This document shows positions 27,475 to 56,451 of a stretch of 64,000 nt of DNA, in pieces. Each line of letters opens with the position of its first letter. The stretch's first letter is position 1. The notes under the pieces are model-generated. The model worked only from the letters and a program-made list of their open reading frames with translations. It was not told the origin of the DNA and did no database searches. The position numbers and the translations under genes were made by a program. Source of the stretch: a virus (taxonomy: Duplodnaviria; Heunggongvirae; Uroviricota; Caudoviricetes); IMG/VR virus record IMGVR_UViG_2861084961_000001; one strand, written 5' to 3'.

Positions 27475-27508
27475 TGTTTAAACAAATAAGATAACAACTT
27501 GTTTAAAC
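27475..27508. promoter_or_regulatory. motif B palindromes (TTGTTTAAACAA and AACAA-C-TTGTT)
   Basis: Upstream of nrdB. Confidence 0.4.
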
Positions 27509-27534
27509 ACATCAAAAAGCAAAAGGAAAAACAC

Positions 27535-28677
27535 ATGTCATATTCAACGTTCCGTTTGGGTGCTAATGATGCAACCAAAGAGCCTATGTTCCTCGGACAA
27601 TCTGTCAACGTGGCACGTTACGATCAGCAAAAATACCGTGATTTTGAAAAGTTGATTGAACGTCAATTGTCTTTCTTCTGGCGGCCGGAAGAAGTTGATA
27701 TTTCGAGCGATCGTATCGACTTCAACACGAAGCTGCGGGACCACGAACGTCACATTTTTCTGAGCAATCTCCGTTATCAAACGTTACTCGATTCAGTTCA
27801 GGGACGTAGCCCAAATGCAACGTTGCTGCCGCTTATCTCTATTCCTGAACTGGAAACGTGGGTTGAAACATGGTCTTTCTCTGAGACTATCCATAGCCGC
27901 AGCTACACCCACATTATTCGTGGCATGGTGGACGATCCGAGCATTGTTTTTGACGGTATTGTTACGGATGAAGAAATCATCAACCGAGCGATCAGTATCT
28001 CTGCTGAATATGACAGGCTTTATGGGATGACCTGCGAGCGCCAGTCGTTAGGTGAGAAGGAGTTTGAACGTCTGTACGTAAATGAATATGGCTGGGAGCC
28101 ATACCCTTTGCACCGTCAGCTTTTCCGCACGTTGGTGTCCATTAATGCGCTTGAGGCGATCCGTTTCTATGTAAGTTTTGCATGTACGTTTGCCTTTGGC
28201 GAACGGAAGTTGCTTGAGGGTAACACCAAAATTATGCGCTTTATTGCCCGTGATGAAGCTCTGCATTGCGAAGGAACTGAACGCATGATCCGCTTCATGC
28301 GTACCGGTCGCGAAGGTTTATTGTGGAAAGAGATTGCTGCTGATGAAGAAAATGTCATTTACGACACCATGAAATCAGTCGCCGAACAAGAAATGAACTG
28401 GGCAGACTATCTCTTCAAAGACGGTTCGATGATTGGTTTAAACGCGGATATTCTGAAGACCTATGTAAAATACCGCACCAATCTGGCTATGAATCGTCTT
28501 GGCCTGAAGGCTTTATTTCCAGAGGTTACCACCGATCCGCTGATCTGGATGAACAAGTGGTTGTTAACCGACACACTGCAAATTGCACCACAAGAGGCAG
28601 AGCAAAGCACATATCTGGTAGGTCAGATCGATTCTACCGTGGATAAGGCTTCTCTAAGCCAGTTTGCTGACCTGTAA
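27535..28677 (+). CDS. nrdB: ribonucleoside-diphosphate reductase beta subunit
   Basis: 380 aa; di-iron/tyrosyl-radical R2 pattern; start at ATG 27535 behind AAAAGGAAAAACACATG (track ORF starts at upstream TTG 27499). Confidence 0.85.
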
Positions 28678-28754
28678 ACCGATACAAAGCATTATGTGGC
28701 CTGGCAACGCTGGGCCACAATGGATCACAAGAATTAAGAAGGAACAAAACTAGC

Positions 28755-29624
28755 ATGAACTTTACCAAACTGACTGACCACCTGAAACTTGCCACCGATC
28801 GACTCATTGGATTTAAACCAGAACCATATGAGTTGCATGAAGGTCATGGTGTAGCTACTGAAAGTATTTACAAGATGGTCGATCAGTTTCATGAACTCTT
28901 CCAGCATCCGAGACGCGTTATGCCGACACCAGAGCTGCTTCGTCTCCGTGCAAGCCTGATTCATGAAGAAGCTGTAGTGGAAGGTATTCCAGCCGCAATG
29001 AATGGGGATATTGAGCAACTGCTGGATGCAATGGCCGACTTTTTATACGTTGGTGTTGGTACGATGGTCGCCATCAAAGGTGGTATTTCTACCGGCATGA
29101 CCTATTACACGCAGGAACAGAGCATTGATCGCTTTATGCAGACAATTTTTGTGCCTGGTAACACTGTTTTCGATGATATGGCAATGCCATTTCAGGAAGC
29201 TCGTGAGGCGTCATGTATGCTCGAAGAGCTGGCAGATAAACTTGAGAACAAGACTGTTAAGGATTCTGAGCTGATTCAGGAACTGCGCCGTGTCATGAAC
29301 AAAATCTATGTGGCGTGCATGATGACCTATCGACTGGCTGATTTCCTCGGTATCAATGTCGTCGAGCTGGTTGGCGAAATTCATCGGTCCAACATGACAA
29401 AATTATGGCCTGCAGATGCCGAAGAGCGTCGCCATGCTGTGGCCAACTGCAAATACGACTCTTCTGACCTGGGATTTCGCCATGCTGATGGCACCGATAA
29501 GATGATCGGTTTTCGAATTTCCGATGGAAAAATTCTGAAGTCTCCAACCTATAGTGATGTCGATTTATCCTCCTTTGTTGAGCAAGCTAAAGCCTCAGCA
29601 ATGTACGGAATGATCAAAAAATAA
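28755..29624 (+). CDS. putative MazG-like nucleoside triphosphate pyrophosphohydrolase (two-lobed)
   Basis: Weak: two helical blocks with acidic clusters (LIHEEAVVEGIPAAMNGDIEQLLDAMADFLYV and LVGEIHRSNMTKL); position in nucleotide-metabolism cluster. Confidence 0.3.
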   Translation: MNFTKLTDHLKLATDRLIGFKPEPYELHEGHGVATESIYKMVDQFHELFQHPRRVMPTPELLRLRASLIHEEAVVEGIPAAMNGDIEQLLDAMADFLYVGVGTMVAIKGGISTGMTYYTQEQSIDRFMQTIFVPGNTVFDDMAMPFQEAREASCMLEELADKLENKTVKDSELIQELRRVMNKIYVACMMTYRLADFLGINVVELVGEIHRSNMTKLWPADAEERRHAVANCKYDSSDLGFRHADGTDKMIGFRISDGKILKSPTYSDVDLSSFVEQAKASAMYGMIKK

Positions 29625-29764
29625 TTGTAGGTAGTTATCTATCTATGTATATTGTGTCGGCGCGTTAAATTTCTGAAACAACTATCCGTTTTTGGTGGCC
29701 TATGGCCACCATTTTTTTATCTATCTGGTCTTGTTCTCTCAATAAATGTAAACTCACACGATGA

Positions 29765-29780
29765 ATAAGTAATTACTTAT
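29765..29780. promoter_or_regulatory. motif A palindrome (ATAAGTAATTACTTAT, perfect 16-mer)
   Basis: Intergenic, upstream of thyA. Confidence 0.45.
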
Positions 29781-29850
29781 CTCTGTGAGGTTTTTGTGTC
29801 ACTCCTTTTGAATCGTGAGCATACGAACGGTCAGGTAACAAACGCATCGT

Positions 29851-30898
29851 ATGCAAAAGTTATTGAGACGGTGCTTAAAGCGGCGTGCAGGCTGATGATC
29901 GCACAGGCACTGGTACTTTAAGCACCTGCTACGTTCCCTCTTACTACATGCTTACTGGTGGGACTGTGCCGCTTATTTCTGGAAAGGCGGTAAATCTTAA
30001 GCCACTACTTGTCGAACTTGAGTGGTATCTGAAAGGCACGGGTAACATCCAATTTCTCAAGGATAACGGCGTGAAGATTTGGGACGCATGGGCCGATGAG
30101 AATGGTGATTTGGGGCCGGTTTACGGCAAGCAGTGGCGTCGCTGGGAAGATACCCGCATCGTGAGCCATAGTGAGTATCTGAGCAAGATCGATACGTTCC
30201 GTGAACGCGGGTACAAAGTCGAGGGATACCTGGGTATCAGTGAAGATCGCGTAGTGCTGTCCCGTGAAATCGATCAGCTACAGCGTATTGTCGATACACT
30301 GCGCACGAACCCTACCGATCGTCGCATCATGCTTAACGCATGGAACGTAGGCGAGCTTGAGGATATGAAACTGCCACCTTGCCACTTTGTCTTCTCTTTG
30401 TGGAGTCGTGAGCTTGATTTTGAAACCCGTTTAACGATGGCAACTGACATTGGTCTTCAACACAGTCGCCTCGGTTACGAGTCTATCTATACCAAGATGC
30501 TATACGATCTGGAGATGGTCGGCAGTGTTACTGAAACTGAACTGGATGAACTTGGAATCCCCAAACGCATCCTCAACTCCTGCCTCGTACAGCGTAGCGT
30601 AGACACTTTTGTTGGTATGCCATTCAATATTGCTGGTTATGGCATTCTCACTCATTTTCTCGCGAAGATTACGGGTCACATGGCCGGTGCCTTTGTGCAT
30701 TTTGGCTTTGACGTGCATTTGTACAACAACCACATGGAAGGTGTGTGTGAGCTAATGAAACGACAGGCTCCAGAGCATTCAGATCCGGTCGTTATTTTCC
30801 CTCATGAATGGTCAGAGTTGGATGATTTCAAATGGGACGAGGTTCTAATTCTTGGCTATGCCCCTCTACCGTGGATCAAGGTTCCAGTGGCGGTGTGA
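29851..30898 (+). CDS. thyA: thymidylate synthase (frameshift in first about 12 codons)
   Basis: DRTGTGTLS, DENGDLGPVYGKQWRRW, PPCHFVFSLW, QRSVDTFVGMPFNIAGYGILTH; ATG 29851 reads 14 codons then stops, GTG-started ORF 29885..30898 carries the rest. Confidence 0.85.
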
Positions 30899-30899
30899 T

Positions 30900-31313
30900 A
30901 TGGCAAGAGGTATGTATGTCTTATGCGAAATTGAAGGTGTGCTGGCAAATACCAGCCATCGTAAATCTGTATCTGACGCGGATGCAGGCCAGCTCATTGC
31001 CGGTGATGAACTCATTTTCCCCACCAGCCGTATGTTGCGTGGTTTTGCTCGCTCAGGGGCTGAAGTGGTGCTTATCAGTAGCCGCTCTGAAACTCTTGAA
31101 GCGCCCACTAAACGATGGCTGAAAGATTTTGGTGTTGATTACGACTGGCTTCATCTCGTACCGAATGGCATCAGTTATGAGAAGCATATTAAGCGCACAT
31201 TAGCGGAGCATAAAGGCGATCTGCTTATCGCTGCGCTGGTGCACGATCCTCGACTCCGTGCCGCTTTAGCTGACTCTCATCATAGACCGGTCATCTATGA
31301 GGTGGGCAAATGA
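30900..31313 (+). CDS. hypothetical protein, possibly HAD-like hydrolase fold
   Basis: ORF track 30852..31313; internal ATG 30900 directly after thyA stop; weak HAD-like blocks. Confidence 0.3.
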   Translation: MARGMYVLCEIEGVLANTSHRKSVSDADAGQLIAGDELIFPTSRMLRGFARSGAEVVLISSRSETLEAPTKRWLKDFGVDYDWLHLVPNGISYEKHIKRTLAEHKGDLLIAALVHDPRLRAALADSHHRPVIYEVGK

Positions 31314-31785
31314 AGATGATAGCTGCTGTTGGCCGTAACTATGAGATCGGCATAGCGAACGAACTGCCCTGGCGTTGTTCTACCGATCTGAAGCTATTTA
31401 AGAGACTCACCAAAAACGCCACTGTCGTTATGGGCGTAAAACGATGGAAAGTCTCAAACGTCCTCTTCCAGAGCGTCATAACCTCGTTTTGACGCGCTCT
31501 CATGGCTTTGTACCAAATGGATTCTACCCTGCTGGTGTGGATGATGTGTTGCGATTACCAGAGCCTGTGTGGGTGATTGGCGGGGAACAAATTTACTCGC
31601 TATTCATGCCGCATGTTGAAGAGATTTGGCTCTCCCACATCGGCGTTGATGTACCAAACGCTGATGCATTCTTCCCGGCAAGCATGATGCGTAACTTAGG
31701 CTTTGTGCCTGTTGAAACAGCTTATACCCAACGAGCCAGCGAGGAAGAGCCTGGCTTTTCGCAGATCGTATACAGAAGGTCGTAA
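31310..31785 (+). CDS. folA: dihydrofolate reductase (frameshift near 31440)
   Basis: MIAAVGRNYEIGIANELPWR, VVMG, LPERHNLVLTRS, WVIGGEQIY across ORFs 31310..31492 and 31444..31785. Confidence 0.75.
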
Positions 31786-32428
31786 TGGATTACCGGATTG
31801 GGATCACTGGTGCTCAGGGCAGTGGGAAAACAACCCTGGCTAAATATATCGACAAACATTACGGAATCCCTTACGTGGATGCTGGTGTCGGAAGTTTGAT
31901 GAGCCGCCTCGGTGTTCGAGTAGGTGAGTCTATGCCTCTATATGAGCGGCTTCAGATTCAAATGGAAATAGCAAAGCATATAGAGCTACTTACGCGTGGT
32001 GTTGAAGGCTTTGTTATCGATCGCACACCTGCTGATGTTATGGCCTACACGTTGGATTTGGTCGGTCATACCAATGAAGATCGGTGTATTGAGTTAGCCC
32101 TCGATATCGAAAAGTTTTGCCACAAAACTGCTATTTCAAACTTTAACGCCATTGCTGGCCTACGCCCGGAGTCGCTCTCACAGAGCGAGATTACTTGCGA
32201 TCACAACGAGCATCATTAGACCGTCTGTATGTTGCTCGTATTGATGCGTTGATGTGCGGGGAACTGACAAAAATTCACCTGCATCCGCAAAGGGGAGATC
32301 TGCAAACCTTCGTCGTTTCCAACCGATATCGCACGGTTGAAGCAAGAGCCAGATCAGTGATGAGAATGCTAGATAACGCTGTAGAAAAGATAGAAAACCG
32401 GTTCTGTGGCCGAGTGACCGTTCATTAG
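31785..32428 (+). CDS. P-loop nucleotide kinase (dNMP kinase-like), frameshift near 32200
   Basis: Walker A GITGAQGSGKTTLAKYI; ORFs 31785..32219 and 32195..32428. Confidence 0.45.
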
Positions 32429-32489
32429 AAATTGTTCGCCTCTTCTACATTGCGACAATAAAACTCTCAAAATGGGTTAAGGATAAAAA

Positions 32490-32909
32490 ATGTTTAGTGA
32501 AATGTTGCTTGAAGATGAACTGGATCGGAAAACAACAGAGGCTTTGATTCGTGTAGCGGACGAACATTCCCGGTCGCTTATGACCGATCGAGAGGCTCGT
32601 CTGGCTATTCGAGCCATATTCGAAACTGCGCAGGGGCTTGTTGGCGCACAAGTAGGTGAAGCCATTAACATCGCCATGTCTCAGTTCAGTGAAGGCAGTA
32701 AAAAGCCTCTGTTTCCTATGCATTTGATGCTGGCTGGTGGCACGGTGCTTTATATCTCTGTTTGTCTGGATAGCAACCAAATCAACATTCTCAACACAGC
32801 ATCAGGTAAGTGGAAAGATCCGATTGTCTGTGAAACCAGTGAAGAAACTTTGAAAAAAGCGGCTCAATTTGTACGTAGCGCACTACTTAAGGGCGCTAAG
32901 AAGTTGTAA
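32490..32909 (+). CDS. hypothetical protein (139 aa)
   Basis: ORF track. Confidence 0.4.
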   Translation: MFSEMLLEDELDRKTTEALIRVADEHSRSLMTDREARLAIRAIFETAQGLVGAQVGEAINIAMSQFSEGSKKPLFPMHLMLAGGTVLYISVCLDSNQINILNTASGKWKDPIVCETSEETLKKAAQFVRSALLKGAKKL

Positions 32910-32918
32910 GGAGTTCTG

Positions 32919-33475
32919 ATGACAACGATTGTTGCAGGCATCGATATCGAGTCTACGGGACTGGATTTCCTTGCTGGTCATAAAATTATTGAAATCGCAA
33001 TTACCCGCTATGAACTGGAGACACAGAGACATATTGATAGTCTGGAGATGCGTTTTAACCCTCGCAGAAACATAGATCCGAAAGCTCAAGCCGTTCATGG
33101 CATTTCATTGGAACAGCTCGCAGCTGAACCTTTGTTGTCAAATCATGCCAGCGAAATTGGCGCTTATATGGGGGCATGTAGTGCGTGGATTGCTCATAAC
33201 GGCGAAGCGTTTGATATACCATTTATTCGACACGAGTTTTCAGGGTATGGAGTAAGACTGCCAGACGTTCCTGTTATAGATACTATGTTATCGGGATTGT
33301 GGCCACAGAAGACGGTAAACGTCCCCGCCTTGAAGAGTTGGCCTTCTCTCTTGGCTTTATATACGATCATGCCAAAGCACATAGTGCCTTATATGACACA
33401 AACTTAATGATGCAATGCTTCTTTAAGGCACGTAATAAGTACGGATTTTTTAAATTACCCTCTGAAATTGTGTAA
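32919..33475 (+). CDS. DnaQ-like 3-prime to 5-prime exonuclease (DEDDh), frameshift near 33300
   Basis: Exo I GIDIESTGLD, Exo II HNGEAFDIPFI; Exo III HSALYD appears in the alternative frame after 33310. Confidence 0.65.
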
Positions 33476-33635
33476 AGCAAAAGCCTACTTTAAAGAGAGT
33501 TTAAAGTAGGCTTTCTTTTAAAGAACAGTCGCCTTTCAATCATTTCCTGCCTGTATTTAATACTTTTCCGCCTGATAGGTTTAGTCAAAATATAGCCATC
33601 GAAACGCAAATGTAACCAAACAGAAGGAGACTTAC

Positions 33636-34058
33636 ATGAGTTCGGTTGAAAATGTAATGACAAATGATGATCTGGACGAACTGACAGCTATGTTGCAATC
33701 ACTTGATGAACCGGTAAAAAAAGCTGCACAGGTTGAGAATACTGATGATATTGACGATCTGCTTCTAGGCCTCGATGCTGGCGTAGCCATGAGTTCTGAT
33801 GATGTTGCCGAAGAACTGTTCAATGAAGAAAAAGCAGGTGATTTTAGCTCCGCTTTAAATGAGTTGGAGTTAGCGCATGAGCCTATAAACGTAATTAACG
33901 CTGAAAGTGGTGAAGCTGCCGAAAATGAGCCAGAACAGTTGGGGATCATTGAGGTTGAAGAGTGTGTTGAGGTTAATGATGAATTAAAAGTTCAACAGTC
34001 AAATGATAGCAATACAAATAAAAAGCTCGTGCTGCAAGAGGTCCTCGTTTTACTTTAA
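33636..34058 (+). CDS. highly acidic protein (140 aa)
   Basis: Very high D/E content, strong RBS GAAGGAGA. Confidence 0.4.
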   Translation: MSSVENVMTNDDLDELTAMLQSLDEPVKKAAQVENTDDIDDLLLGLDAGVAMSSDDVAEELFNEEKAGDFSSALNELELAHEPINVINAESGEAAENEPEQLGIIEVEECVEVNDELKVQQSNDSNTNKKLVLQEVLVLL

Positions 34059-34216
34059 GTGATAAAGATGATTCGTTTTTCAATAAAGCAGGCTTAGAAA
34101 AAGATATTTTCTTAGACGCTTATGAAAACGCGCCTGTCAAAGCGAAGGATAAGATATTAAACCTTCTTAATTGGTTTAGCGGAGGTCCAGATATTAGTGT
34201 TTACACGGTAATTTCC

Positions 34217-34444
34217 ATGAGACACCTTCTCACAGAAAAGAAGGCTACAAGTAATAGTATTAAGATTGCTTTAATGAGCAATCCAGAAAAACCGTATCCG
34301 CTTAACACTGCGTCAACTCAGGCTGGGCAAATGATGGCTGTATTTCCAGCTACAGGAATTGCCGTTAGAGACGGTGGAAATCTAACATTGAACGAAGAAT
34401 CACCGATCGTTAAGAAGTTTGTCGCGGAGTACACTATTGGATGA
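34217..34444 (+). CDS. hypothetical protein (75 aa)
   Basis: ORF track. Confidence 0.35.
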   Translation: MRHLLTEKKATSNSIKIALMSNPEKPYPLNTASTQAGQMMAVFPATGIAVRDGGNLTLNEESPIVKKFVAEYTIG

Positions 34445-34518
34445 CGTTCCCCTACTGAAAATAAAGCCCATAGAGAGCTTTATAGTGCTGGGTAAGCTAA
34501 CCCATACCCAGCACCACA

Positions 34519-34566
34519 AAAACGCGCCAGAGAGCTTCTTGTTCGCATTTCTGGCGCGTTTTATTT
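34519..34566 (+). terminator. terminator hairpin AAACGCGCCAGA ... TCTGGCGCGTTT
   Basis: 12-bp inverted repeat with T-rich tail. Confidence 0.5.
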
Positions 34567-34597
34567 GATTGCCATACATAAAATCAAATGCAAAAAT

Positions 34598-34617
34598 AGG
34601 TAATCACTTACCTATTG
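34598..34617. promoter_or_regulatory. motif A palindrome (ATAGGTAA-TCAC-TTACCTAT, perfect arms)
   Basis: Immediately upstream of the Dam-like methyltransferase start. Confidence 0.45.
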
Positions 34618-34626
34618 AGAAAGAAG

Positions 34627-35220
34627 ATGATTGCAGCCGAAAAAATCAAACAGCGAAAGCGCGACAACTCTCTTCGTGACCTCTGGAGAACACCTGATTG
34701 GCTGTTTTCTGCCATTCAACGTTATCTTGGGGTGACATTTGATGTTGACGTTGCCTGCAACAAGGACAATGCAAAGCTGCCTAATTTCATAGGCGTTGAG
34801 CGTGATGCTTTGAAATCTGAATGGGGACAGCCAGGTACAATTGCCTTCCTCAATCCACCCTACTCCAAAATCTCCCCCTGGATTGATGCTGCTATACGTG
34901 AGCAGGCTCGCGGAGTTACAACAGTGATGCTAATTCCTCAATCCCTCGATACAAAGTGGTATGAGCGTGCAACAGAGTATGCGAATGAGACGATTATTCT
35001 GTCTGGTGGCCGCGTAGCGTTTGTCGAGCCTGACGTCAATTTGGGTCAGGTAGAAGTAAACATCAACCCCGGTGGCAGTATGCTCGTTGTTTTTCGAGGA
35101 TTCTGTCAGGACGCTGGGCACTCTATAAGCAAGATCCCTTTGGACGTAATGAAAAGTCTGGGAGGGTATGATCCTGCGAATGTGGTCAGGAAAAAAAGAC
35201 CATCAAAGAAGGCTGCTTAG
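34627..35220 (+). CDS. DNA methyltransferase, NPPY motif (likely N6-adenine, phage Dam-like)
   Basis: FLNPPYSKISPW; start ATG 34627 (track begins at an alternative start 34615). Confidence 0.55.
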   Translation: MIAAEKIKQRKRDNSLRDLWRTPDWLFSAIQRYLGVTFDVDVACNKDNAKLPNFIGVERDALKSEWGQPGTIAFLNPPYSKISPWIDAAIREQARGVTTVMLIPQSLDTKWYERATEYANETIILSGGRVAFVEPDVNLGQVEVNINPGGSMLVVFRGFCQDAGHSISKIPLDVMKSLGGYDPANVVRKKRPSKKAA

Positions 35221-35405
35221 TTTGTTCTGGCGAGTGTAATTAACCTGCTTCTGTATATAAATAACTACATATTAATTATTAATATACGGAAGCAGGCTGT
35301 TTTGTATCAGAGACTCCCAGACCTGAACACCACTACAGAATCCACTAGAACCCCTTCTCAGACGCTTTAAAATCGATTTTATGAACCACTTTAAGGAAAA
35401 CTAAC

Positions 35406-35636
35406 ATGTCATACCCGACCAATGTTGTTGCGCTCGTAGAGAGCGATTTTCTGGCTAAGGCTCGTGAAATGATGAAAGATCGCGAGCAGGCTTTCAACTT
35501 GTACGAATGGGCAATTAAGTGCTTGCATCTTGGGGAGCATCGCGAACTTGTTGAACAGCTTTTAGGTGAGTTGATCAACGAGGTGTTTGCCTTGAATGTT
35601 CAACTACATGGTCGAGAAAATAACCAATCGAAATGA
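35406..35636 (+). CDS. hypothetical protein (76 aa)
   Basis: ORF track. Confidence 0.35.
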   Translation: MSYPTNVVALVESDFLAKAREMMKDREQAFNLYEWAIKCLHLGEHRELVEQLLGELINEVFALNVQLHGRENNQSK

Positions 35637-36217
35637 TAGATAAGTACAAACTATTCATAAGATGGATTGTAAGTGCTAAGATCTGATAGTTTCCAGTCGT
35701 AGACTGGAGACTCGACCTGATGGGTGGGGGTAAGCGTCACTGGCGTCAGGTTTAAAAAAGCTCACTACCAGCGTAGAACCGGTGCCGTTTAGGTGTCGGG
35801 GAAGGGGGAACCAAAGTGAGCGGAGACAAGGGTCACTTTATGATTGTCGAGTCTGGGATGTTTCGAGAGGTTGAATCCAGTACTCCCCTTCATAAAGTGT
35901 GGGAAGATCTCGGTTCTGGGGTGCTGTCATCCATAACTTCCCAAGTCTAAGCTGGCAGTAGACTTAGACCATAGCTTTTCAGGTTATGAAACGACCAGGT
36001 TGGTGAGGAATTTTATACTCACCTCCCTGGGAGAGTATTACCTGAAAAGACAACCTCTCACTTCGTTCGAGGTGAACTTCACTCACTTCGTTCGTTCAGT
36101 TCAGGTTTATAAAAACCTGTACTGGGAAGTAATTTGTTTATTTTAATAATTATTACACGCACGCGTGTGCGCACGCGCGAGGAAAAAATCGGCGCGGCGC
36201 TTGATTCAGGAGTTTAT

Positions 36218-36808
36218 ATGACGTCGAAGACACCAGCCCGGTCGCAAGCAAAAACTCGCAAAAAAGACAAAAACAAAAATTCTCCCCGCACCAATCCCAC
36301 AACGCCTGTCGTAGAGTTCAATCCCCAGCTTAAAACCGTGAAAATCTTCAGTGATGGCTCTTGCCTTAAAAATCCGGGTGGCCCGGGCGGTTACGGTATA
36401 GTTCTCCAGTATCGTGGTGAGGAACGCGAGTTCTCAGATGGTTTTCATAGCACCACCAATAACCGCATGGAGATGATGGGGGCACTTATCGGGCTGGAGC
36501 GTTTGAAATATCCATGCAACGTTATTTTGCACTCTGATAGCCAGTATCTGAAAAACGGCATGACACAGTGGATGAAATGGTGGAAACGCAATGGATGGAT
36601 GACTTCTGACAAAAAACCGGTAAAGAATGTTGATCTGTGGAAGCGTCTGGATGAGGCCGCAAGTCGACATAATGTTCGCTGGAAGTGGGTTAAAGGTCAC
36701 GCCGGGCATCGTGAAAATGAAATATGTGATCGACTCGCGAAGATCGCAGCTTTTTCCGCAGCAGATATGCCTCACAAGAAAGATATTGGTTTTGTTTATA
36801 ACAAGTAG
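36218..36808 (+). CDS. rnhA: ribonuclease HI with about 45-aa basic N-terminal extension
   Basis: [91 protein letters not shown]; ATG 36218 inside track ORF 36134..36808. Confidence 0.85.
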
Positions 36809-36827
36809 TAAGTAAGTGTTTACCTAT
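36808..36827. promoter_or_regulatory. motif A palindrome (GTAAGTAA-GTGT-TTACCTAT)
   Basis: Intergenic, after rnhA. Confidence 0.4.
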
Positions 36828-36956
36828 CATTTTAAATCATGTATCTTATCGGCGTCAGGATGACAATGTGTCGGTAAGACACAGTTCCAGGATGGAACGA
36901 GAAAGGCGGCTGGCAATCGCCAGCCGCAACTCTTTCTGACACTGGATGGAGTCCAC

Positions 36957-37464
36957 ATGGCACGTCAAACCTATTTCACTTCTGCAACTAAACGTCCTCG
37001 TTCTTTACGTCAAATTTTGGCCGAATTATTTAGCGGTCGTGTTATGTCACGTCTTGATGAACTAGAGACTACCGTTCGGTTGCTGAATGAACGTTTAGAT
37101 AATCAAGCGTCAGTTGTTGCGAACGTGGGGGCGATTGTTGCCTCTGGTTCTTCACGCGAAGCGAAAAGTACACGGCCTTTAGTGAAGGAGAAAAACAACA
37201 AGGACAGTTCGAATGGAAAATTTTCAAAGAAAGAGGCTGAAACCAATGGCCTACGTTCTCATTATAGTTTCACTGGCGACGGTAGCCGTTCCAGCCGGCC
37301 AGAGCCTTTTGATGCCGGATTCATCCATCACCACACCTTCGTCGACGACAATTACCACCACTCCAGTGGAGCGTCCTGTCACTCTGGATGGGATGGCGGT
37401 GGATGCGATACCTCAAGTTCATCCAGTTACTCAGGATCATGCTGTGACTAAGGCGGTTGTATGA
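36957..37464 (+). CDS. hypothetical protein(s) with C-terminal transmembrane segment; frames 36957.. and 37213.. probably one gene
   Basis: ORF track; hydrophobic AYVLIIVSLATVAVPAG in second frame. Confidence 0.3.
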
Positions 37465-37649
37465 ACTGGTTTTCAAATCACTTTGGAAAAATTTGGCTGG
37501 CAATTCTTGCCCTCATGGCCGCCGGTTGGGTATCGAACATTATAAAACTTGTTTGCTCTGGCGATCTCCAGTTTCAGGCTGGCATGACCTTGGCTCGTGT
37601 AGTTGGGATTTTTGTTTTTCCAGTTGGTTCGGTACTTGGTTATTTCTGA
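37461..37649 (+). CDS. small two-helix membrane protein (62 aa)
   Basis: ORF track; hydrophobic segments. Confidence 0.4.
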   Translation: MNWFSNHFGKIWLAILALMAAGWVSNIIKLVCSGDLQFQAGMTLARVVGIFVFPVGSVLGYF

Positions 37650-37704
37650 CGGCTGTTAGTGCATATGCATTGACCATCTCTGCGTAAGCAATTTATGTAA
37701 TTAG

Positions 37705-37719
37705 AAAACAACTTGTTTT
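37705..37719. promoter_or_regulatory. motif B palindrome (AAAACAA-C-TTGTTTT)
   Basis: Upstream of TerB-like gene. Confidence 0.45.
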
Positions 37720-37742
37720 GACAAATAATAAAAGGAAAACAC

Positions 37743-38167
37743 ATGTTAGGTTTCTTCAAAAAGAAAACTCGTAAAGCTGTTATCGAAGTCAAAAAATGGA
37801 GAACCGTGATGCGGTTGAGGCCACCGTGTGGGGCGCGTACATGATCTCCTATGCCGACGGCACATGTGACGCAAAAGAAATTGCCATTCTTGAGAAGACA
37901 ATTGCAGCTCTGCCTGCGTTTTCTCCGTTTGCTGGTGAAATTGCCCAAATGAGCGCCAATATCCGTGCTCGTTACGAAGCGTCCCCTCGTTCTGCTAATG
38001 CACAGGCTATTCGTGAGCTGTCTGATATTGCGGGTACTCCAGAGGCGGTCGATGTTCTGTGTCTGTGCCTTGATATTGCCGATCAGGACGGCATTGGTGA
38101 ACAAGAAGAGCAGGCACTGAAAAAGATCGCCCAGGCGCTTCAGTTGTCACTGGATGCTTATCTCTAA
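37743..38167 (+). CDS. TerB-like domain protein (frameshift at an A6 run near 37790)
   Basis: TerB-like helices with acidic motifs (DGTCDAKEIAILEKTIAAL, LCLCLDIADQDGIGEQEEQALKKIAQAL); ATG 37743 behind AAAAGGAAAACACATG is out of frame with ORF 37796..38167. Confidence 0.45.
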
Positions 38168-38328
38168 TGCTTGAGAGATTCCGGCTTGTGATCGTCATTG
38201 CTCTTCTGGTGATGGCGGTGTTGGTGGATTTACGGGAAAGATGATGTCTGTCATTTCTGATGGCGTCCTCATTGGTTTGGCGATCTACTTCGCTTATCCG
38301 TTAGTTCGTAAAGCAAAGTGTTAATGAC

Positions 38329-38352
38329 AAGGGCCAAATGGCCCTTGTGTTT
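38329..38352 (+). terminator. rho-independent terminator GGGCCA-AA-TGGCCC plus T-rich tail
   Basis: Hairpin after two small hydrophobic ORFs. Confidence 0.5.
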
Positions 38353-38445: not shown

Positions 38446-38463
38446 AAGCATTAGGAAAAACAC

Positions 38464-47469: not shown

Positions 47470-47763
47470 ATGTCTATTTTTAACCCAATGAACCTTCAAT
47501 ACCGCAACATCAGTGTCTTGCGAATTAAGATAGTGTGTATAGGTTATACATGCAAGTGCATAACTCTGTGGATAACTCAGGAAGGAAAAAGTAGCTTCCG
47601 CGCAATTTAGGCCAGACAAGGCTTTCGCAAAAATCAACGGAGAGAAAAAAATTTGTTAAAAATAACGTTTGTTGGAATTGTATATATTTATGCCTTTCAA
47701 TAGTTAGCATCTTATTAACATCTTTTTTAAGAGATAGAGTTCAAAAATATATAGCTTCAACAT

Positions 47764-47800: not shown

Positions 47801-48190
47801 ATGGGCTTCCCTTCTCCTGCGGCGGATTATGCTGAGAGCCGTATTTCTCTTGATCAGCAGATAATTAGACATCCTTCAGCGACCTACTTCTTGAGGGCAG
47901 CTGATAGCCATCATCGTGAGGGAATATTGCAGGGTGCATTGCTGGTGGTCGATTCCTCACTCACTCCTGTTGATGGATCTCTTCTTGTATGTGCTCTGGA
48001 TGGGGAATATCGCGTAAAAAGATACCGGAAGTATCCACGTCAGCATCTGGAGGATTTAAGAACTGGTAAGAAGGAAGCATTGCCAAAGGATGATGATGGA
48101 TGCACGGGCAGCAATGCCGTGTTTGGTGTGATCACTCACATTATCAACGACGCAAGAAGTGGCGAGTTTGATGATTGTCCTGTGATGTAG
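47801..48190 (+). CDS. umuD: UmuD-prime-like protein (S24 peptidase fold, begins at the position matching the UmuD cleavage product)
   Basis: MGFPSPAADYAESRISLDQQIIRHPSATYFLRA...DGEYRVKRY matches the recalled UmuD core from residue 25 onward. Confidence 0.65.
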   Translation: MGFPSPAADYAESRISLDQQIIRHPSATYFLRAADSHHREGILQGALLVVDSSLTPVDGSLLVCALDGEYRVKRYRKYPRQHLEDLRTGKKEALPKDDDGCTGSNAVFGVITHIINDARSGEFDDCPVM

Positions 48191-48222: not shown

Positions 48223-48227
48223 TTTTA

Positions 48228-49328
48228 TCACACTGCGCGGAATGCGATTTCGCCAGGTATTACTTCACCTTGCCAATACATTTGGGCAGCAACGCGATCT
48301 GCGAGGTCACGATAAATAGCCGTAAATTCGCTATCTGGACGACTAATAACGGTTGGTGTTCCGTTATCCAGATCCTCACGAAGAGAGATATGAAGTGGCA
48401 TTTGGCCTAACAACTGCGTGTTGTATTTCTCGGCCAGTTTCTGTGCGCCACCGGTGCCAAAAATTGGCTCGTGATGACCGCAGTTACTGCAAATATGCAC
48501 ACTCATGTTTTCGACGATACCTAGTACCGGCACTTCGACTTTTTCGAACATCACAATGCCTTTCTTCGCATCGATCAGCGCGATGTCTTGCGGCGTAGTT
48601 ACCACAACCGCACCAGTTACAGGAATGTTCTGCGCCAGCGTCAATTGAATATCACCAGTGCCCGGCGGCATATCGAGAACGAGATAGTCCAGATCAGGCC
48701 ACAGTGTTTCCTGCAACATCTGCATCAGCGCCTTGCTGGCCATCGGTCCACGCCACACCATTGCATTGTCGTCGGTGACCAGATAACCAATAGAGTTGGT
48801 TGCCAGGCCATGAGACATGATAGGTGCCATGTGAGTACCGTCCGGTGAGGTTGGACGTTGGTTTTCCGCACCCAGCATGGTTGGAATTGATGGACCGTAG
48901 ATATCGGCATCCAAAATACCAACTTTCGCACCTTCAGCAGCCAACGCCAGTGCCAAGTTTACTGCTGTGGACGATTTGCCTACACCGCCCTTGCCTGAGC
49001 TGACGGCGATGATGTTCTTAACGCCATTAATGCCTGGTTGGTTTTTGACGCGCTTAAGCGTGGCAATGTTGTACGACAGCTTCCAGTCGATAGCCTTTGC
49101 GCCAGTGATACGGAGCAGATCACCACTACATTGCTCTTTCAGGTCTTCAAAAGGCTTATTCCACACGAAAGGCATGATTAGTTCGACATGCAGTGTGTCA
49201 TCCATCAACGCAACATGGTGTAACGCTTTAAGCGTAGTCAGGTTGTGCTTCAGGGTTGGGTGCTGAAAATTAGCCAGCGTACCGGCTACCATTGCTCTCA
49301 GGGCATCCGGCGATTTGGACTCGCTCAT
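48228..49328 (-). CDS. mrp: Mrp/ApbC Fe-S cluster carrier ATPase, intact, host-type
   Basis: 366 aa; deviant Walker A SSGKGGVGKSSTAVNLA, CxxC motif; near-identical to recalled E. coli Mrp. Confidence 0.9.
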   Translation of the reverse strand: MSESKSPDALRAMVAGTLANFQHPTLKHNLTTLKALHHVALMDDTLHVELIMPFVWNKPFEDLKEQCSGDLLRITGAKAIDWKLSYNIATLKRVKNQPGINGVKNIIAVSSGKGGVGKSSTAVNLALALAAEGAKVGILDADIYGPSIPTMLGAENQRPTSPDGTHMAPIMSHGLATNSIGYLVTDDNAMVWRGPMASKALMQMLQETLWPDLDYLVLDMPPGTGDIQLTLAQNIPVTGAVVVTTPQDIALIDAKKGIVMFEKVEVPVLGIVENMSVHICSNCGHHEPIFGTGGAQKLAEKYNTQLLGQMPLHISLREDLDNGTPTVISRPDSEFTAIYRDLADRVAAQMYWQGEVIPGEIAFRAV

Positions 49329-49485
49329 CCCGTCTCCTTTATTTTAATTTGCGCAATTGTCGCCTTGTAGTGTACTCCAGCTACGACATTTAATCATTTA
49401 TGAGAAATGCTGTTATCACATGGCAGACATAAGGCCATTTTGTTACTATCAAGCCCCTTTTCACTACAAAGAAGTAATGCCTACT

Positions 49486-51519
49486 ATGACCCAAGTCGCG
49501 AAGAAAATTCTGGTGACGTGCGCGCTGCCGTACGCTAACGGCTCAATCCACCTCGGCCATATGCTGGAGCACATCCAGGCTGATGTCTGGGTTCGTTACC
49601 AGCGAATGCGCGGCCACGAGGTTAATTTCATCTGTGCCGACGATGCCCACGGTACGCCGATCATGCTGAAAGCACAGCAGCTTGGTATCACACCGGAACA
49701 GATGATTGGCGAAATGAGCCAGGAACACCAGACTGATTTCGCAGGCTTTAACATCAGCTATGACAACTATCACTCGACGCACAGCGAAGAGAACCGCCAG
49801 CTGTCTGAGCTTATCTATACTCGCCTGAAAGAGAACGGTTTTATTAAAAACCGCACTATCTCTCAGTTGTACGACCCGGAAAAAGGCATGTTCCTGCCGG
49901 ATCGTTTTGTGAAAGGCACCTGTCCGAAATGTAAAGCGCCAGATCAATACGGCGATAACTGTGAAGTTTGCGGCGCGACCTACAGCCCGACTGAACTGAT
50001 TGAGCCGAAATCGGTAGTTTCTGGCGCTACGCCGGTAATGCGTGATTCTGAACACTTCTTCTTTGATCTGCCCTCTTTCAGCGAAATGTTGCAGGCATGG
50101 ACCCGCAGCGGTGCGTTGCAGGAGCAGGTGGCAAACAAAATGCAGGAGTGGTTTGAATCTGGTCTGCAACAGTGGGATATCTCCCGCGACGCACCTTACT
50201 TCGGTTTTGAAATTCCGAACGCGCCGGGTAAATATTTCTACGTCTGGCTGGACGCACCGATTGGCTACATGGGTTCCTTCAAGAATCTGTGCGACAAGCG
50301 CGGCGACACTACCAGCTTCGATGAATACTGGAAGAAAGACTCCACCGCCGAGCTGTACCACTTCATCGGTAAAGATATCGTTTACTTCCACAGCCTGTTC
50401 TGGCCTGCCATGCTGGAAGGCAGCAACTTCCGCAAGCCGACCAACCTGTTTGTTCACGGCTATGTGACGGTGAACGGCGCGAAGATGTCCAAGTCTCGCG
50501 GCACCTTTATTAAAGCCAGCACCTGGTTGAATCATTTTGACGCTGACAGCCTGCGTTACTACTACACCGCCAAACTGTCTTCGCGCATTGATGATATCGA
50601 TCTCAACCTGGAAGATTTCGTTCAGCGCGTGAATGCCGATATCGTGAACAAAGTGGTTAACCTGGCCTCCCGTAATGCGGGCTTTATCAACAAACGTTTT
50701 GACGGCGTGCTGGCAAGCGAACTGGCTGACCCGCAACTGTACAAAACCTTTACTGATGCCGCTGAAGTGATTGGCGAAGCATGGGAAAGCCGCGAATTTG
50801 GTAAAGCTATCCGTGAAATCATGGCATTGGCTGACCTGGCTAACCGCTATGTCGATGAACAGGCTCCGTGGGTGGTGGCGAAGCAGGAAGGACGCGATGC
50901 CGATCTGCAGGCGATTTGCTCTATGGGCATTAACCTGTTCCGCGTGCTGATGACTTACCTGAAACCGGTACTGCCGAAACTGACAGAACGTGCGGAAGCA
51001 TTCCTCAATACGGAACTGACCTGGGATGGCATCCAGCAACCGCTGCTGGGCCATAAAGTGAATCCGTTCAAAGCACTGTATAACCGTATCGACATGAAAC
51101 AGGTGGAAGCATTGGTGGAAGCGTCTAAAGAAGAAGTGAAAGCTACTGCCGCGCCAGTTACTGGCCCGCTGGCAGACGACCCGATTCAGGAAACCATCAC
51201 CTTTGACGACTTTGCCAAAGTTGACCTGCGCGTGGCGCTGATCGAAAACGCAGAGTTTGTTGAAGGTTCTGACAAACTGCTGCGCCTGACGCTGGATCTC
51301 GGCGGTGAAAAACGTAATGTCTTCTCAGGCATCCGTTCCGCTTATCCAGACCCACAGGCACTGATTGGCCGTCACACCATTATGGTGGCTAACCTGGCTC
51401 CGCGTAAAATGCGTTTCGGTATCTCCGAAGGCATGGTGATGGCTGCTGGCCCCGGCGGGAAAGACATCTTCCTGTTAAGCCCGGATGCTGGTGCTAAACC
51501 TGGCCACCAGGTTAAGTAA
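49486..51519 (+). CDS. metG: methionyl-tRNA synthetase, intact, host-type
   Basis: [29 protein letters not shown] (HIGH-type), KMSKS, C-terminal tRNA-binding domain; start at ATG 49486 inside track ORF 49357..51519. Confidence 0.95.
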
Positions 51520-51602: not shown

Positions 51603-51668
51603 AAAACAATTTGTTTTCTGCCTTTTGTTGATTGAGATAATAAGCCACATAAGAAAACAAATTGTTTC
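51603..51668. promoter_or_regulatory. two motif B palindromes (AAAACAA-T-TTGTTTT and GAAAACAAATTGTTTC)
   Basis: Immediately right of the metG terminator, upstream of 51681 gene. Confidence 0.45.
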
Positions 51669-52869: not shown

Positions 52870-53660
52870 TTGTTTATACAAACAAGAAAACAACTGAATA
52901 ACAGATCAACGAAACGTCAACGCTTTCACCCGATTTGGTCTAAAAAATTGACGTTTTCACACATCACTTCTTATACCCGCAATCCTACGCAGCAGACAGC
53001 GCCACAGCGTCCAATTTTCACCACAGACGACCCAACACACCACCAACAAAAACACACGCTCAAAATCGCTCTCGTTGCGTTACATAACCATATAAACAAC
53101 TTATTTTCAGGCATAACAAAACAACTAAATAACACATACGCAATTCCCAAAAACAACCAACCTCTTTATTGCAGGCTACCGAAAAGACCCACCTCTTCTT
53201 CCCAGGCTACCGGACAACCAACCTAACTTTCACAGGCAATCCGAAAACATTCATGCGCGCGATACCCACGACACGCCATTCCCCAAACAGCGAAGAAACA
53301 CCTGAACCACCGAAACCCCAACGAAGCCTGTAACCGCAAGGATTCTCTCAATCCCAAAAGACACGAAACATAACAATCACGGGAAACGCCATTACCCAAT
53401 ACACGAATAACTACAAAAGCCTTTCACACACTCCAGACAAACAACTCAAACACAATAACGAAAGGAATCGCCCACCTGCCATTACTCCATACACGGAGAA
53501 GAACAAGCACCAAAACGACGAGAACATCCCACAGAAGAACCACCGCAAAACTAACGAAACCATTTACACCGACAGAGAGAACAACACACCCAATTCACCA
53601 ACAGAATTAGTCGCCGTATAGAACGTTCTGGAAGGAGTGAGCATTAACGTCCATAGAGAG
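52870..53660. repeat. strand-asymmetric CA-rich non-coding region containing CAGGCTACCG-type direct repeats
   Basis: Plus strand almost free of G or T runs for about 800 bp; only ORF there is low-complexity; repeats near 53170, 53200, 53235. Confidence 0.45.
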
Positions 53661-53960: not shown

Positions 53961-54286
53961 TATAGCGAGAGGGAGAGTTGCGGCTACCCACCTGTAATGT
54001 GCGGGAAGAAGAGAGGCGCTCACGTGCAGGCGGACTTGCTTACCGCTGGATTCCCTCTGAATGCCCAGCTACAGCGTAATTGTGCCAGACAGCCAACGGG
54101 TCACGATCGATTTCAGTAGGTTTTCGGGGAGAGGATTATTCTGTCCACCAGCCACCTTCGGCCACTAAATCAGAATAATGTAAAAAGTGTACTCGGTACT
54201 GAACCTGAAAACTCACTGCCAAAACCACATTCACCGGAATAAAATCCTTTTTCGCCTGTGCGTTATTGCGATAATAACACCAACAA

Positions 54287-54301
54287 GAAAACATGTTGTT
54301 T
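54287..54301. promoter_or_regulatory. motif B palindrome (GAAAACATGTTGTTT)
   Basis: Upstream of 54314 gene. Confidence 0.4.
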
Positions 54302-54313
54302 AAGGATTGCTTT

Positions 54314-54643: not shown

Positions 54644-54769
54644 ACCAATCAAAGCCAGCATTGCTGGCTTAATTTCTCTATAGCCGCAGGGAGGAACCTG
54701 CATATCGCTCATGCACCTGATCAATATGCTTTGTAGCCGTTTTCTTACTGGTATTATTTACGCCATTGA

Positions 54770-54783
54770 GAAAACAAGTTGTT
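54770..54783. promoter_or_regulatory. motif B palindrome (AAAACAA-G-TTGTTT)
   Basis: Upstream of 54796 gene. Confidence 0.45.
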
Positions 54784-54795
54784 TACGGAGTTGTG

Positions 54796-55629: not shown

Positions 55630-55638
55630 TCCTCTTTA

Positions 55639-55664
55639 AATGGCGCGTAAACCGCGCCATTTTC
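55639..55664 (+). terminator. rho-independent terminator AATGGCGCG-TAAAC-CGCGCCATT plus TTC
   Basis: Perfect 9-bp stem. Confidence 0.55.
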
Positions 55665-55673
55665 TTATGCCCG

Positions 55674-55690
55674 ATAACAATTTGTTTTCT
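55674..55690. promoter_or_regulatory. motif B palindrome (AACAA-T-TTGTT)
   Basis: Upstream of 55747 gene. Confidence 0.4.
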
Positions 55691-55746
55691 GCCTTATCTG
55701 ATTTGTGAAAATGATTTCACTGAAGCAACTTAATAAGGAAACCATC

Positions 55747-56121
55747 ATGGGACTTGATATCTATATCGAGACGCAGCCTAAAAACGATCTGAATAACGAG
55801 GCATCCAGAAAGCGGGTTGCTTACTTCCGTAAGTTCAATGCGCTCGTTGGGTGGATGGAGCGCAACGTAGGTGAAGTCGAAAATTGTGAGCTTTTAGAAT
55901 TAACGATGAATGACATTTGTTTTCTGAAGGCTCATTTGATGCACATAAATGAAAGTAATTGCGAAGAGTACTTGCCTACCCGGGAAGGTTTTTTCTTCGG
56001 CAGTCAGGAGTACGATGAAGGTTACTGGCATGACGTGGATAAGCTGAAAAAACTTGTGGAAGACCTGATCATGAACCACGACTTTCACAATAACAGACTG
56101 ACCTTCTGCGCCTGGTGGTAA
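55747..56121 (+). CDS. hypothetical protein (124 aa)
   Basis: ATG 55747 inside track ORF 55705..56121. Confidence 0.4.
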   Translation: MGLDIYIETQPKNDLNNEASRKRVAYFRKFNALVGWMERNVGEVENCELLELTMNDICFLKAHLMHINESNCEEYLPTREGFFFGSQEYDEGYWHDVDKLKKLVEDLIMNHDFHNNRLTFCAWW

Positions 56122-56124
56122 ATA

Positions 56125-56268
56125 TGGGCGATTTCAAGAAACGCCTGAAGGAAAGAGCCGAGATGGTCAGAAAGCGAAACGCCTATTCTGTCATCAGATA
56201 CGCAAGGCAGTTTAGTCGCAACAACAAATCAGTTGAGGAAAAGATCCTTAGCGTAATCGGGCGATAAT
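56125..56268 (+). CDS. small basic ORF (47 aa)
   Basis: Read from sequence; followed by hairpin AAGACCACC-AGCAT-TGGTGGTCTT at 56273-56296. Confidence 0.25.
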
Positions 56269-56436
56269 TATTAAGACCACCAGCATTGGTGGTCTTAAAT
56301 GACCATCCTGTTTCCCGCAGGCTAAAAACACCAACCTCTTACCTCCAGGCAACCGACAAACCCACCTGTTCCCGTCAGGCTACCGCAACTTTCCACTTTG
56401 ACGCCTTATTCGTACAACGATAATTAACGCCAACAA

Positions 56437-56451
56437 GAAAACAATTTGTTA
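56437..56451. promoter_or_regulatory. motif B palindrome (GAAAACAATTTGTTA)
   Basis: Upstream of 56472 gene. Confidence 0.4.

Follow-up and report, generated by a model that had tools for sequence, protein, structure and literature searches.

Motif B, an oriented near-palindrome and putative operator embedded in the promoter cassettes of SSU5-type phage-plasmids

The element and its genes

The 64,000-nt stretch of DNA analysed here (the window; IMG/VR record IMGVR_UViG_2861084961_000001) is, as judged by sequence comparison, about 64 kb of an SSU5-type Escherichia coli phage-plasmid. Specifically, window bases 25000-45000 show ~97% identity to the Escherichia phages CMS-2020a, PhiR41_1 and Cyrano, 79% identity to Salmonella phage SSU5 and ~77% identity to Klebsiella phage-plasmids. 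The genes are ordered in a fashion that places replication, recombination and nucleotide metabolism first, then small accessory genes, and then a block of genes on the minus strand. Dispersed between these genes is a short near-palindromic sequence, motif B, which probably provides the operators of a single regulator encoded by the element, most likely a repressor acting on DNA, and which appears to be built into sigma-70 promoter cassettes.

The window also contains a host-like block, composed of mrp/apbC (48228-49328, minus strand) and metG (49357-51519). A first-pass annotation of this DNA had noticed that motif B occurs on both sides of the block and had proposed that the two flanks belong to one element. 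Both observations find confirmation. Sites are present at 42054 and, weakly, at 47645 on one side of the block (48228-51519) and from 51603 onward on the other; moreover, the whole window, block included, is collinear with PhiR41_1 and Cyrano, in which mrp/apbC and metG sit at the same place. On the basis of this comparison, the mrp/apbC-metG pair is a conserved part of E. coli-type phage-plasmids and not an insertion specific to the window. A gene for an S24 peptidase (UmuD-like) is found at 47801-48190, just upstream of the block.

Motif B in the window

Motif B had been described in the first-pass annotation as AAAACAA-N1-2-TTGTTTT, with more than ten copies. Taken as a strict pattern this description does not stand, as it has just two matches, at 37705 and 51603 (sites are given throughout as 15-mer start positions). 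In a degenerate form, instead, the recurrence of the motif is strongly real. Allowing up to three mismatches, the degenerate 15-mer gives 18 matches in the window versus 7.9 ± 2.7 expected, and the 11-mer core AACAA-N-TTGTT, with no more than one mismatch, gives 18 versus 3.9 ± 1.9. Motif discovery, suggested at the time as a check, leads to the same result: when all 5+5 palindromes with spacers of 0-5 were compared with Markov-simulated sequences, AACAA-N1-TTGTT was the top-ranked palindrome of the window, with nine exact copies versus 0.05 expected. The spacer, for which one or two bases had been allowed, is always one base and never two.

About 14 sites in the window are credible, every one of them intergenic, and they start at 781, 13187, 27491, 37705, 38432, 39146, 42054, 51603, 51654, 53093, 54288, 54771, 55674 and 56438. 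Matches to the core at 28552, 43160 and 44410 are intragenic and probably due to chance. The range previously assigned to the motif, from nrdB to 56.4 kb, is too narrow, with good sites at 781 and 13187 falling outside it. Considered together with its flanks, motif B is an oriented 17-base near-palindrome, AGAAAACAA-N-TTGTTTA (that is, AG-AAAACAA-N-TTGTTTA), to which the flanks in (A/T/C)AG-AAAACAA-N-TTGTTTA-A give a direction. The AATAAG that was said to precede the motif is found directly before it at three of the 14 sites, with CATAAG at a fourth, and the general rule is reduced to AG (9/14). Similarly, the sequence GGAAAA(A)CACATG had been regarded as a start context following the motif, but only three of its six copies in the window come after motif B, so that it is best considered a general start context of the element.

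The placement of the motif with respect to gene starts is far from random, as had been anticipated. In particular, all nine exact sites lie upstream of a plus-strand gene start, defined as the first ATG of a plus-strand open reading frame (ORF) of at least 50 aa located 10-100 nt downstream of the site, whereas 15% of random positions do so (p = 5e-8). The proposal that motif B is a second shared motif, distinct from a motif A (TAAGTAnnTACTTA), is also sustained, motif A being located in other intergenic regions both in the window and in SSU5. The second-ranked palindrome of the scan, TAAGT-N4-ACTTA, with four copies versus 0.02 expected, is evidently motif A. Copies of motif A (aaaTAAGTAnnTACTTAcctat) are intergenic and distributed genome-wide, at 2940, 8517, 12041, 16548, 20377, 29766, 34597, 36813, 40858, 55176 and 62223, and SSU5 has at least 25 of them, some upstream of structural genes. 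One copy lies in the divergent region between a ParB-like operon and the minus-strand operon that includes an FljA-like gene.

Promoter modules carrying motif B

The geometry was derived from 211 unique exact sites, drawn from the window together with PhiR41_1, SSU5, a Klebsiella plasmid and IMG/VR loci. In class I (61/211), the -10 hexamer starts 25-26 nt upstream of the motif centre and the ATG is most commonly found at +19, the consensus being CcTttT..t.g..atAATaAc.ccaataAGAAAACAA.TTGTTTAagga. In class II (47/211), the motif has the reverse orientation and a TGnGATAAT extended -10 element starts 26 nt downstream of the centre; here the consensus is gCCttAAACAA.TTGTTTTCTgCCTt.tct....TG.gAtAATaa, usually after a GC hairpin. 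With the hexamer set at -12 to -7, the upstream site (O1) is centred at about -38, where it overlaps the -35 region, and the downstream site (O2) at about +14. The distance between neighbouring sites is quantised: 20 unique cases have 51 bp and six have 25 bp, with almost no other value. Promoters carry either both putative operators, exactly 51 bp apart, or one of them alone. Because the AG-flanked half-site always faces the promoter core, the arrangement is mirror-symmetric on the DNA, the full module included, and not strand-specific. The order of elements in the cassette is terminator hairpin, O1 (TAAACAA-N-TTGTTTTCT), GCCTTTT, TGnGATAAT, O2, ribosome-binding site and ATG, with O2 running into the ribosome-binding site. 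A different position is occupied at parA, outside the window, where the site is in the promoter spacer, just upstream of the GATAAT box.

The TG of the extended -10 element is present at six of the eight -10 boxes of the window modules, in the form TG(C/A/G/T)-GATAAT, -TATTAT or -GAAAAT (39128, 42087, 51636, 54270, 54752 and 55707), and it is kept in the class II consensus; as expected, a simple -35/-10 scan calls none of these extended -10 modules. In addition, the sites combine the traits of a dyad operator, namely two-fold symmetry, enrichment over chance and overlap with core promoter elements. The orientation of the motif, the O1 and O2 classes, the embedded extended -10 promoter and the sites out of the initial range are additions to the first-pass annotation.

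A complete dual-operator promoter is located on the plus strand at 51603-51668 and comprises O1 AAAACAATTTGTTTTCTGCCTTTT (51603-51617), the -10 box TGAGATAAT (51636-51641) and O2 AAGAAAACAAATTGTTTC (51654-51668), with centres 51 bp apart, ahead of a DUF5983 gene (ATG 51681). The plus-strand module at 42054-42120 follows a terminator-like hairpin (42034-42054) and consists of a reverse O1, TAAATAAATTGTTTTCT, the -10 box TGTGAAAAT (42087-42092) and half an O2, AGAAAACAA-cGGAG (42103-42120), upstream of an HD-domain gene (ATG 42123; SSU5 orthologue of the site at 85608). At 55674-55712, again on the plus strand and preceded by a GC hairpin, a reverse O1, ATAACAATTTGTTTTCTGCCTT, is joined by a 19-bp spacer to the -10 box TGTGAAAAT (55707-55712; ATG 55747); this module is without O2, whereas its SSU5 counterpart (93668/93719) has both operators.

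The modules ending at 39160, 54302, 54785 and 56452, all on the plus strand, carry O2 only. The one at 39125-39160 is made of the extended -10 element TGCGATAAT (hexamer 39128-39133), CACCAATAAG and O2 AAAACAAATTATTTA (39146-39160), and it precedes a DUF4942 gene (ATG 39172). The same TGCGATAAT (hexamer 54270-54275) opens the module at 54267-54302, followed by ACACCAACAAG and O2 AAAACATGTTGTTTA (54288-54302; ATG 54314; SSU5 orthologue 92175). In the module at 54749-54785, TGGTATTAT (hexamer 54752-54757) is followed by O2 GAG-AAAACAAGTTGTTTA (54771-54785), and the ribosome-binding site GGAG directly abuts the motif (ATG 54796; SSU5 orthologue 92765). Finally, the module at 56419-56452 has GATAAT (56419-56424), TAACGCCAACAAG and O2 AAAACAATTTGTTAT (56438-56452; ATG 56472), with a perfect SSU5 orthologue at 94531.

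The remaining sites stand singly. At 781-795 (minus strand) the motif, TAAATAATTTGTTTT, is in reverse orientation 19 nt upstream of the ATG (814) of a CobT-like gene, and its SSU5 orthologue, at 42735, is perfect. The class I site AAG-AAAACAATTTGTTAA (13187-13201, plus strand) lies 3' of a TATTAT box, with 16 nt separating it from the ATG at 13217. Between nrdA and nrdB (ATG 27535), the plus-strand site ATAACAACTTGTTTA (27491-27505; SSU5 orthologue 70225) is preceded by an everted TTGTTTAAACAA at ~27474-27485. A perfect plus-strand site, AAAACAACTTGTTTT (37705-37719), is found upstream of a TerB-like gene (ATG 37743), which is frameshifted here, and the class I site CCAATAAG-AAAACAACTTGTTTA (38432-38446, plus strand; SSU5 orthologue 81751) upstream of a gene for a 188-aa protein at 38464. 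The reverse-orientation site TAAACAACTTATTTTC (53093-53107, minus strand) has no obvious gene start near by; its SSU5 orthologue, at 90746, is perfect. The plus-strand site AAAAAAATTTGTTAA (47645-47659), upstream of the UmuD-like gene, is weak and uncertain, with three mismatches.

Conservation among relatives

In SSU5, whose DNA is ~79% identical, the orthologous promoters of nrdB, the 188-aa gene, the DUF4942 gene, the HD-domain gene and accessory genes carry exact or near-exact sites. Further SSU5 sites are found upstream of parA, of a gene for a DnaB-like helicase, of the CobT-like gene and of terS, the last with two sites 25 bp apart and then a terminator-like hairpin. The same terS, parA and helicase sites are present in the part of PhiR41_1 that lies outside the window region. 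The Klebsiella plasmid pRHB30-C05_4, whose proteins are typically 50-75% identical to those of the window, has 14 exact sites in 31.7 kb, and more exact sites elsewhere, including one at the helicase promoter, together with a one-mismatch site at parA. The parA-promoter sites are at 38106 in PhiR41_1, 30450 in SSU5 and 80856 in the Klebsiella plasmid. Three-way alignments (E. coli-type element, SSU5 and Klebsiella plasmid) of the promoters of the helicase and DUF4942 genes show that motif, -10 box, ribosome-binding site and ATG are invariant; in the DUF4942 promoter, O1 is perfect only in the Klebsiella plasmid, the E. coli-type and SSU5 copies being degenerate. In SSU5 and the Klebsiella plasmid, divergence of the flanking sequence has left the motif in place at orthologous promoters. 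Yersinia pestis pMT1, in turn, keeps motif-B sites in the regions that it retains. The proposal of a shared regulatory site fits these data, as the sites are intergenic only, keep constant distances to -10 boxes and start codons and persist at orthologous promoters.

Beyond SSU5-like contigs, exact matches in IMG/VR are single, intragenic and confined to AT-rich genomes. The Moellerella plasmid pW18-2-b (NZ_CP093251), distant yet syntenic (TerL 80% identical), shows no enrichment of motif B, with 20 loose matches versus 21 expected; it has half-site relics only, one of which (ATAAGAAAACAAtatattt) is in the parA promoter, and motif A is still there. The same record contains eight copies, on both strands, of another conserved element, (TATAAATACT)ATGGGAGCTAGGC (e.g., at record positions 563, 13527, 26045, 51922 and 75662), as well as iterons CTATAGAGAGC near repB.

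Two further observations concern PhiR41_1. At 10660-10755, a GC hairpin and a T run (GAGCGCATGGACGCGCTC TGTGTGTTTT) come after two motif-B sites separated by 25 bp and directly precede the start of terS, an arrangement that looks like a regulated terminator placed before the packaging and late genes. In addition, two copies of a long palindrome, CCTGCTTC(T/C)GTATATA...TATATACAGAAGCAGG, whose AT-rich core resembles motif A, are present at 10580-10640 and 40116-40170, upstream of terS and of the helicase operon, respectively; a role as an origin or in packaging is conceivable.

Candidate binding proteins

Among the conserved products, just one carries an annotation as a regulator, namely the FljA-like protein encoded on the minus strand at 59354-59914 (Pfam Flag1_repress, PF03614, 2.8e-67; PHROG 1444 'transcriptional repressor'), whose gene is frameshifted near the 3' end in the window. 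Its distribution is limited to SSU5-like records (13 phage records and 830 plasmids), and its sequence varies to an unusual degree, with 28-99% identity. Its structure model consists of tandem Sm/Hfq-like barrels and has no helix-turn-helix. A second candidate is the partner of ParA, a protein of 119 aa encoded outside the window and characterized by a ribbon-helix-helix (RHH)-like sequence pattern. Its putative beta-strand or arm, RPQGRPTRGK..IKSRTMS(L/I)EDE, is invariant between proteins that are 51% identical overall, and it has a weak NCBIfam match to the aCcr1 family (E = 2e-4, below the family cut-off), whose members are RHH proteins. ParA itself has an NCBIfam ParA_partition match of 1.9e-33, below the model cut-off. 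Other candidates are an 88-aa winged-helix-like protein, 77-88% conserved, encoded just upstream of terS, and two ParB_N proteins present in the element.

The Moellerella plasmid keeps the RHH-like and winged-helix-like proteins, ParB and ParA, while its FljA homologue is remote (141 aa, hhalign probability 95%) and without the conserved N-terminus. A link between FljA and motif B is thus favoured by this single comparison, since the relative that lacks the motif has only a remote FljA homologue; FljA as a conventional operator-binding protein is, however, disfavoured, because the geometry of the sites is of a DNA type. Phyletic profiling in the phage collection does not discriminate, the FljA-like, winged-helix-like and RHH-like proteins being found in the same 11-13 SSU5-like records. 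Plasmid pMT1 was set aside as a discriminator, being too recent a derivative, with no Yersinia record seen among the RHH-partner matches; an RHH-like fragment in a 252-kb Klebsiella plasmid is a remnant beside an insertion sequence and uninformative. As a rough estimate, the FljA-like protein may be the binder, with another protein, possibly of the host, a possibility of the same order; the RHH-like partner is a slightly less probable choice, the winged-helix-like protein a doubtful one and a ParB-like protein a very improbable one.

Regulatory interpretation

Motif B is, in our judgement, probably the operator of one regulator of the element. In such a model, a dimeric DNA-binding protein would occupy the dyads, cooperatively where two are present, and would block the binding or the escape of RNA polymerase. 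One control would be exerted over a dispersed set of ~25 promoters per genome, bringing together many early, maintenance and accessory functions. The target promoters would be, in the window, those of the cobT-like gene, nrdB, the DUF4942 gene, the TerB-like gene and many small accessory genes, and, only in the relatives (PhiR41_1, SSU5 and the Klebsiella plasmid), those of parA, the DnaB-like helicase gene and terS. From the shared site we infer that the genes carrying motif B are co-regulated. Repression is the likely outcome, because positions -38, -24 and +14 overlap the core promoter, as is typical of repressor operators. Recognition of double-stranded DNA by a symmetric protein is suggested by the reverse-complement symmetry of the motif, its occurrence in both orientations, the -38, -24 and +14 positions and the 51- and 25-bp spacing. 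A hairpin or a known RNA family was rejected as unlikely: the leaders with motif B are predicted to be unstructured (-1 to -3.9 kcal/mol, z-scores ~0, no better than shuffled sequences), they have no Rfam matches, and functional-looking variants alter one arm with no compensating change in the other. We know of no enterobacterial host transcription factor whose consensus matches motif B.

Some points weigh against an operator bound on DNA. Several candidates compete for the role of binding protein, and both the promoters and the direction of regulation are predictions from sequence. On inspection of the sequence, no recognisable -10 box was found at the nrdB site. The Hfq-like fold modelled for the FljA-like protein fits RNA better than a DNA dyad, and in class I sites both the consistent AG flank and the adjoining ribosome-binding site would also be compatible with recognition at the level of the mRNA.

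The last two points lead to an alternative that we hold to be rather unlikely, in which class I sites act as translational operators. That is, the FljA-like tandem-Sm protein would read them as RNA (AGAAAACAAnUUGUUUA), next to the ribosome-binding site, and it might block ribosomes and destabilise transcripts as Salmonella FljA does on the fliC leader, the Salmonella protein being one that reportedly binds the fliC mRNA. A related proposal, drawn from the structure model and likewise improbable, is that this Hfq-fold protein is the regulator and reads AGAAAACAA-N-UUGUUUA in leaders and perhaps the same dyad on DNA. The FljA-like gene is indeed syntenic and conserved in SSU5-type elements, and Moellerella, the one relative without motif B, keeps the other candidates. 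If transcription is assumed to start ~7 nt after the -10 box, a class I site would fall at +5 to +21 of a ~35-nt leader. CCAATAA and CAAGTTGT are common to the class I sites and the fliC leader CCAATAACATCAAGTTGTAATTGATAAGG (known from a primer in PMC5056187); the similarity, though, is weak (P ~0.02-0.14). Moreover, a sense position in the leader beside the ribosome-binding site holds for the 61 class I sites and not for the 47 unique reverse sites, which lie upstream of the -10 box and outside the downstream mRNA, only ten of them being accompanied by a full O2. An exact reverse-complement symmetry, including a C/G pair, is unnecessary for recognition of single-stranded RNA, and the mirror layout around the promoter and the 51- and 25-bp spacing are properties of DNA. 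In addition, the motif is unchanged in Klebsiella, where the FljA-like protein is only 28-34% identical, and the FljA-like gene of the window is frameshifted.

The remaining explanations concern sites acting, or simply residing, on the DNA. In a variant of the operator model, again to be regarded as doubtful, the 119-aa RHH-like ParA partner would bind motif B at the parA promoter, as its operator, and elsewhere at scattered sites serving as centromeres or for silencing. Autorepression of the partition operon is a trait of type Ib centromere-binding proteins, and comparable cases are omega of pSM19035, KorB of RK2 and SopB of N15, a phage-plasmid with dispersed centromeres. Motif B is present in the parA promoter of E. 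coli-type, SSU5 and Klebsiella-type elements, with the relic in Moellerella mentioned above, and the invariant strand of the partner and its weak aCcr1 match point in the same direction. The repeat array near parA that is usual for type Ib centromeres is, however, missing: no repeat array was found around parA, and no cluster of at least five half-sites in 150 bp is present in the E. coli-type element or in SSU5. Furthermore, Moellerella keeps a similar beta-strand (IKSRTVSMEDE) but lost the regulon, the RHH fold is deduced from a sequence pattern only and its gene is outside the window, and pMT1, weak evidence in view of its recent derivation, keeps sites in the presence of a different parAB. 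Far less likely is an activator site or promoter element, with O1 at about -38 recruiting RNA polymerase to promoters that have no consensus -35, as in a temporal class served by a phage activator. O1 does overlap the -35 position, at a fixed 19 bp from the -10 box, but extended -10 promoters usually need no activator, and an activator cannot work from +14, where most window sites (O2) are centred, or from the spacer position seen at parA. The least probable explanation is that the palindrome is a passive passenger of a duplicated cassette, or a stretch of homology for shuffling, with no dedicated binder. A relationship among the cassettes is evident from the longer flanks that they share (GCCTTTT, CCAAnAAG), and some borders of mosaic blocks versus PhiR41_1, Cyrano and SSU5 fall within 50 bp of modules (39113, 42024/42094, 54293, 54725 and 55698), which suggests an exchange of accessory genes as promoter-gene-terminator cassettes. 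Nevertheless, the dyad is the most invariant part of the cassette, with variation affecting the flanks and the -10 box itself; its two orientations and exact spacing are maintained, and it is present at unrelated promoters such as those of parA, the helicase gene and terS, and the presence at one promoter of an O1 that is perfect in one lineage and degenerate in another suggests turnover under selection.

Other features of the element

Single-base gaps with respect to PhiR41_1 split many long genes of the window: eight in the 3.8 kb of dnaE, which appears as ~6 ORFs, three in sbcC and one in the cobT-like gene. The TerB-like, PHROG 1513 and FljA-like (3' end) genes are disrupted too. The regions involved are 4254-7943, 21820-23650, 814-2921, 37743-38167, 58071-58720 and 59354-59914. 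Either the assembly is rich in errors or the element is decaying; the motif statistics are unaffected by the split genes. The gene at 8620-9648, whose product related records label 'regulator' or 'putative regulatory protein', encodes a T4 gp32-like protein binding single-stranded DNA (PF08804, 1.6e-66).

Significance and comparison with known systems

SSU5-type phage-plasmids are commonly encountered in E. coli, Klebsiella, Salmonella, Enterobacter and Yersinia pestis, and the marker genes chosen for them here are present in ~800 of 72,556 plasmid records. Phage-plasmids as a class are described in PMC9600943 as often carrying antibiotic resistance genes. A literature search found no description of motif B and no paper on the plasmid-lytic switch or the gene regulation of SSU5-type elements; a preprint on a phage-plasmid with RepA mutations was discarded, as it concerns an unrelated 49-kb family. 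In this context, a single conserved operator and cassette predicts which genes would be jointly controlled and offers a bait for finding their regulator, and motif B may serve as a compact signature to annotate promoters and accessory-gene cassettes in these plasmids. If the less likely proposal of an Hfq-fold regulator were true, such a protein would control ~25 early, maintenance and accessory genes in SSU5, pHCM2, pMT1 and Klebsiella-type clinical phage-plasmids, and flagellar phase control by FljA in Salmonella would be a domesticated offshoot of a phage regulatory system.

To our knowledge, motif B matches no known operator sequence; in function it can be compared with the systems of P1 C1, KorA/KorB, omega and N15. 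The C1 operators of P1 are similar in that one operator is scattered over a ~100-kb plasmid prophage and places separate operons under one protein. P1 operators are asymmetric 17-mers of unrelated sequence, whereas motif B is a dyad whose pairs bracket the promoter at 51 bp, and no C1 homologue was seen in this element. KorA/KorB of RK2 and omega of pSM19035 also act on short palindromes or heptads at fixed promoter positions, the partition operon included, and the regulator can be the partition protein. Specifically, KorB recognises 13-bp dyads centred on a single base, and some of these lie just upstream of the -35 element. The sequences are, however, unrelated, no heptad arrays are found here and the element is a phage, whose ParB_N proteins are at most candidates for binding the motif. 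N15 is likewise a phage-plasmid with palindromic sites, bound by SopB and scattered in promoters of phage genes, but it has ~4 sites and a large SopB/ParB, in contrast to the ~25 sites, the small ParA and the small RHH-like partner, a candidate for binding, of the element described here.

The Salmonella FljA/fliC leader system is comparable in that a Flag1_repress protein is encoded, class I sites are in the leader beside the ribosome-binding site and CCAATAA...CAAGTTGT is common to both. It differs in the weakness of the similarity, in the presence here of reverse sites outside the leader and in the number of targets, that is, one known target of FljA versus a regulon of ~25 promoters. Lastly, the moron cassettes of temperate phages are likewise small accessory genes, each with its own promoter and hairpin terminator. 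In the SSU5-type element, instead, one common operator and promoter design is used, which is found also at the core gene nrdB and, in the relatives, at the helicase gene, parA and terS.

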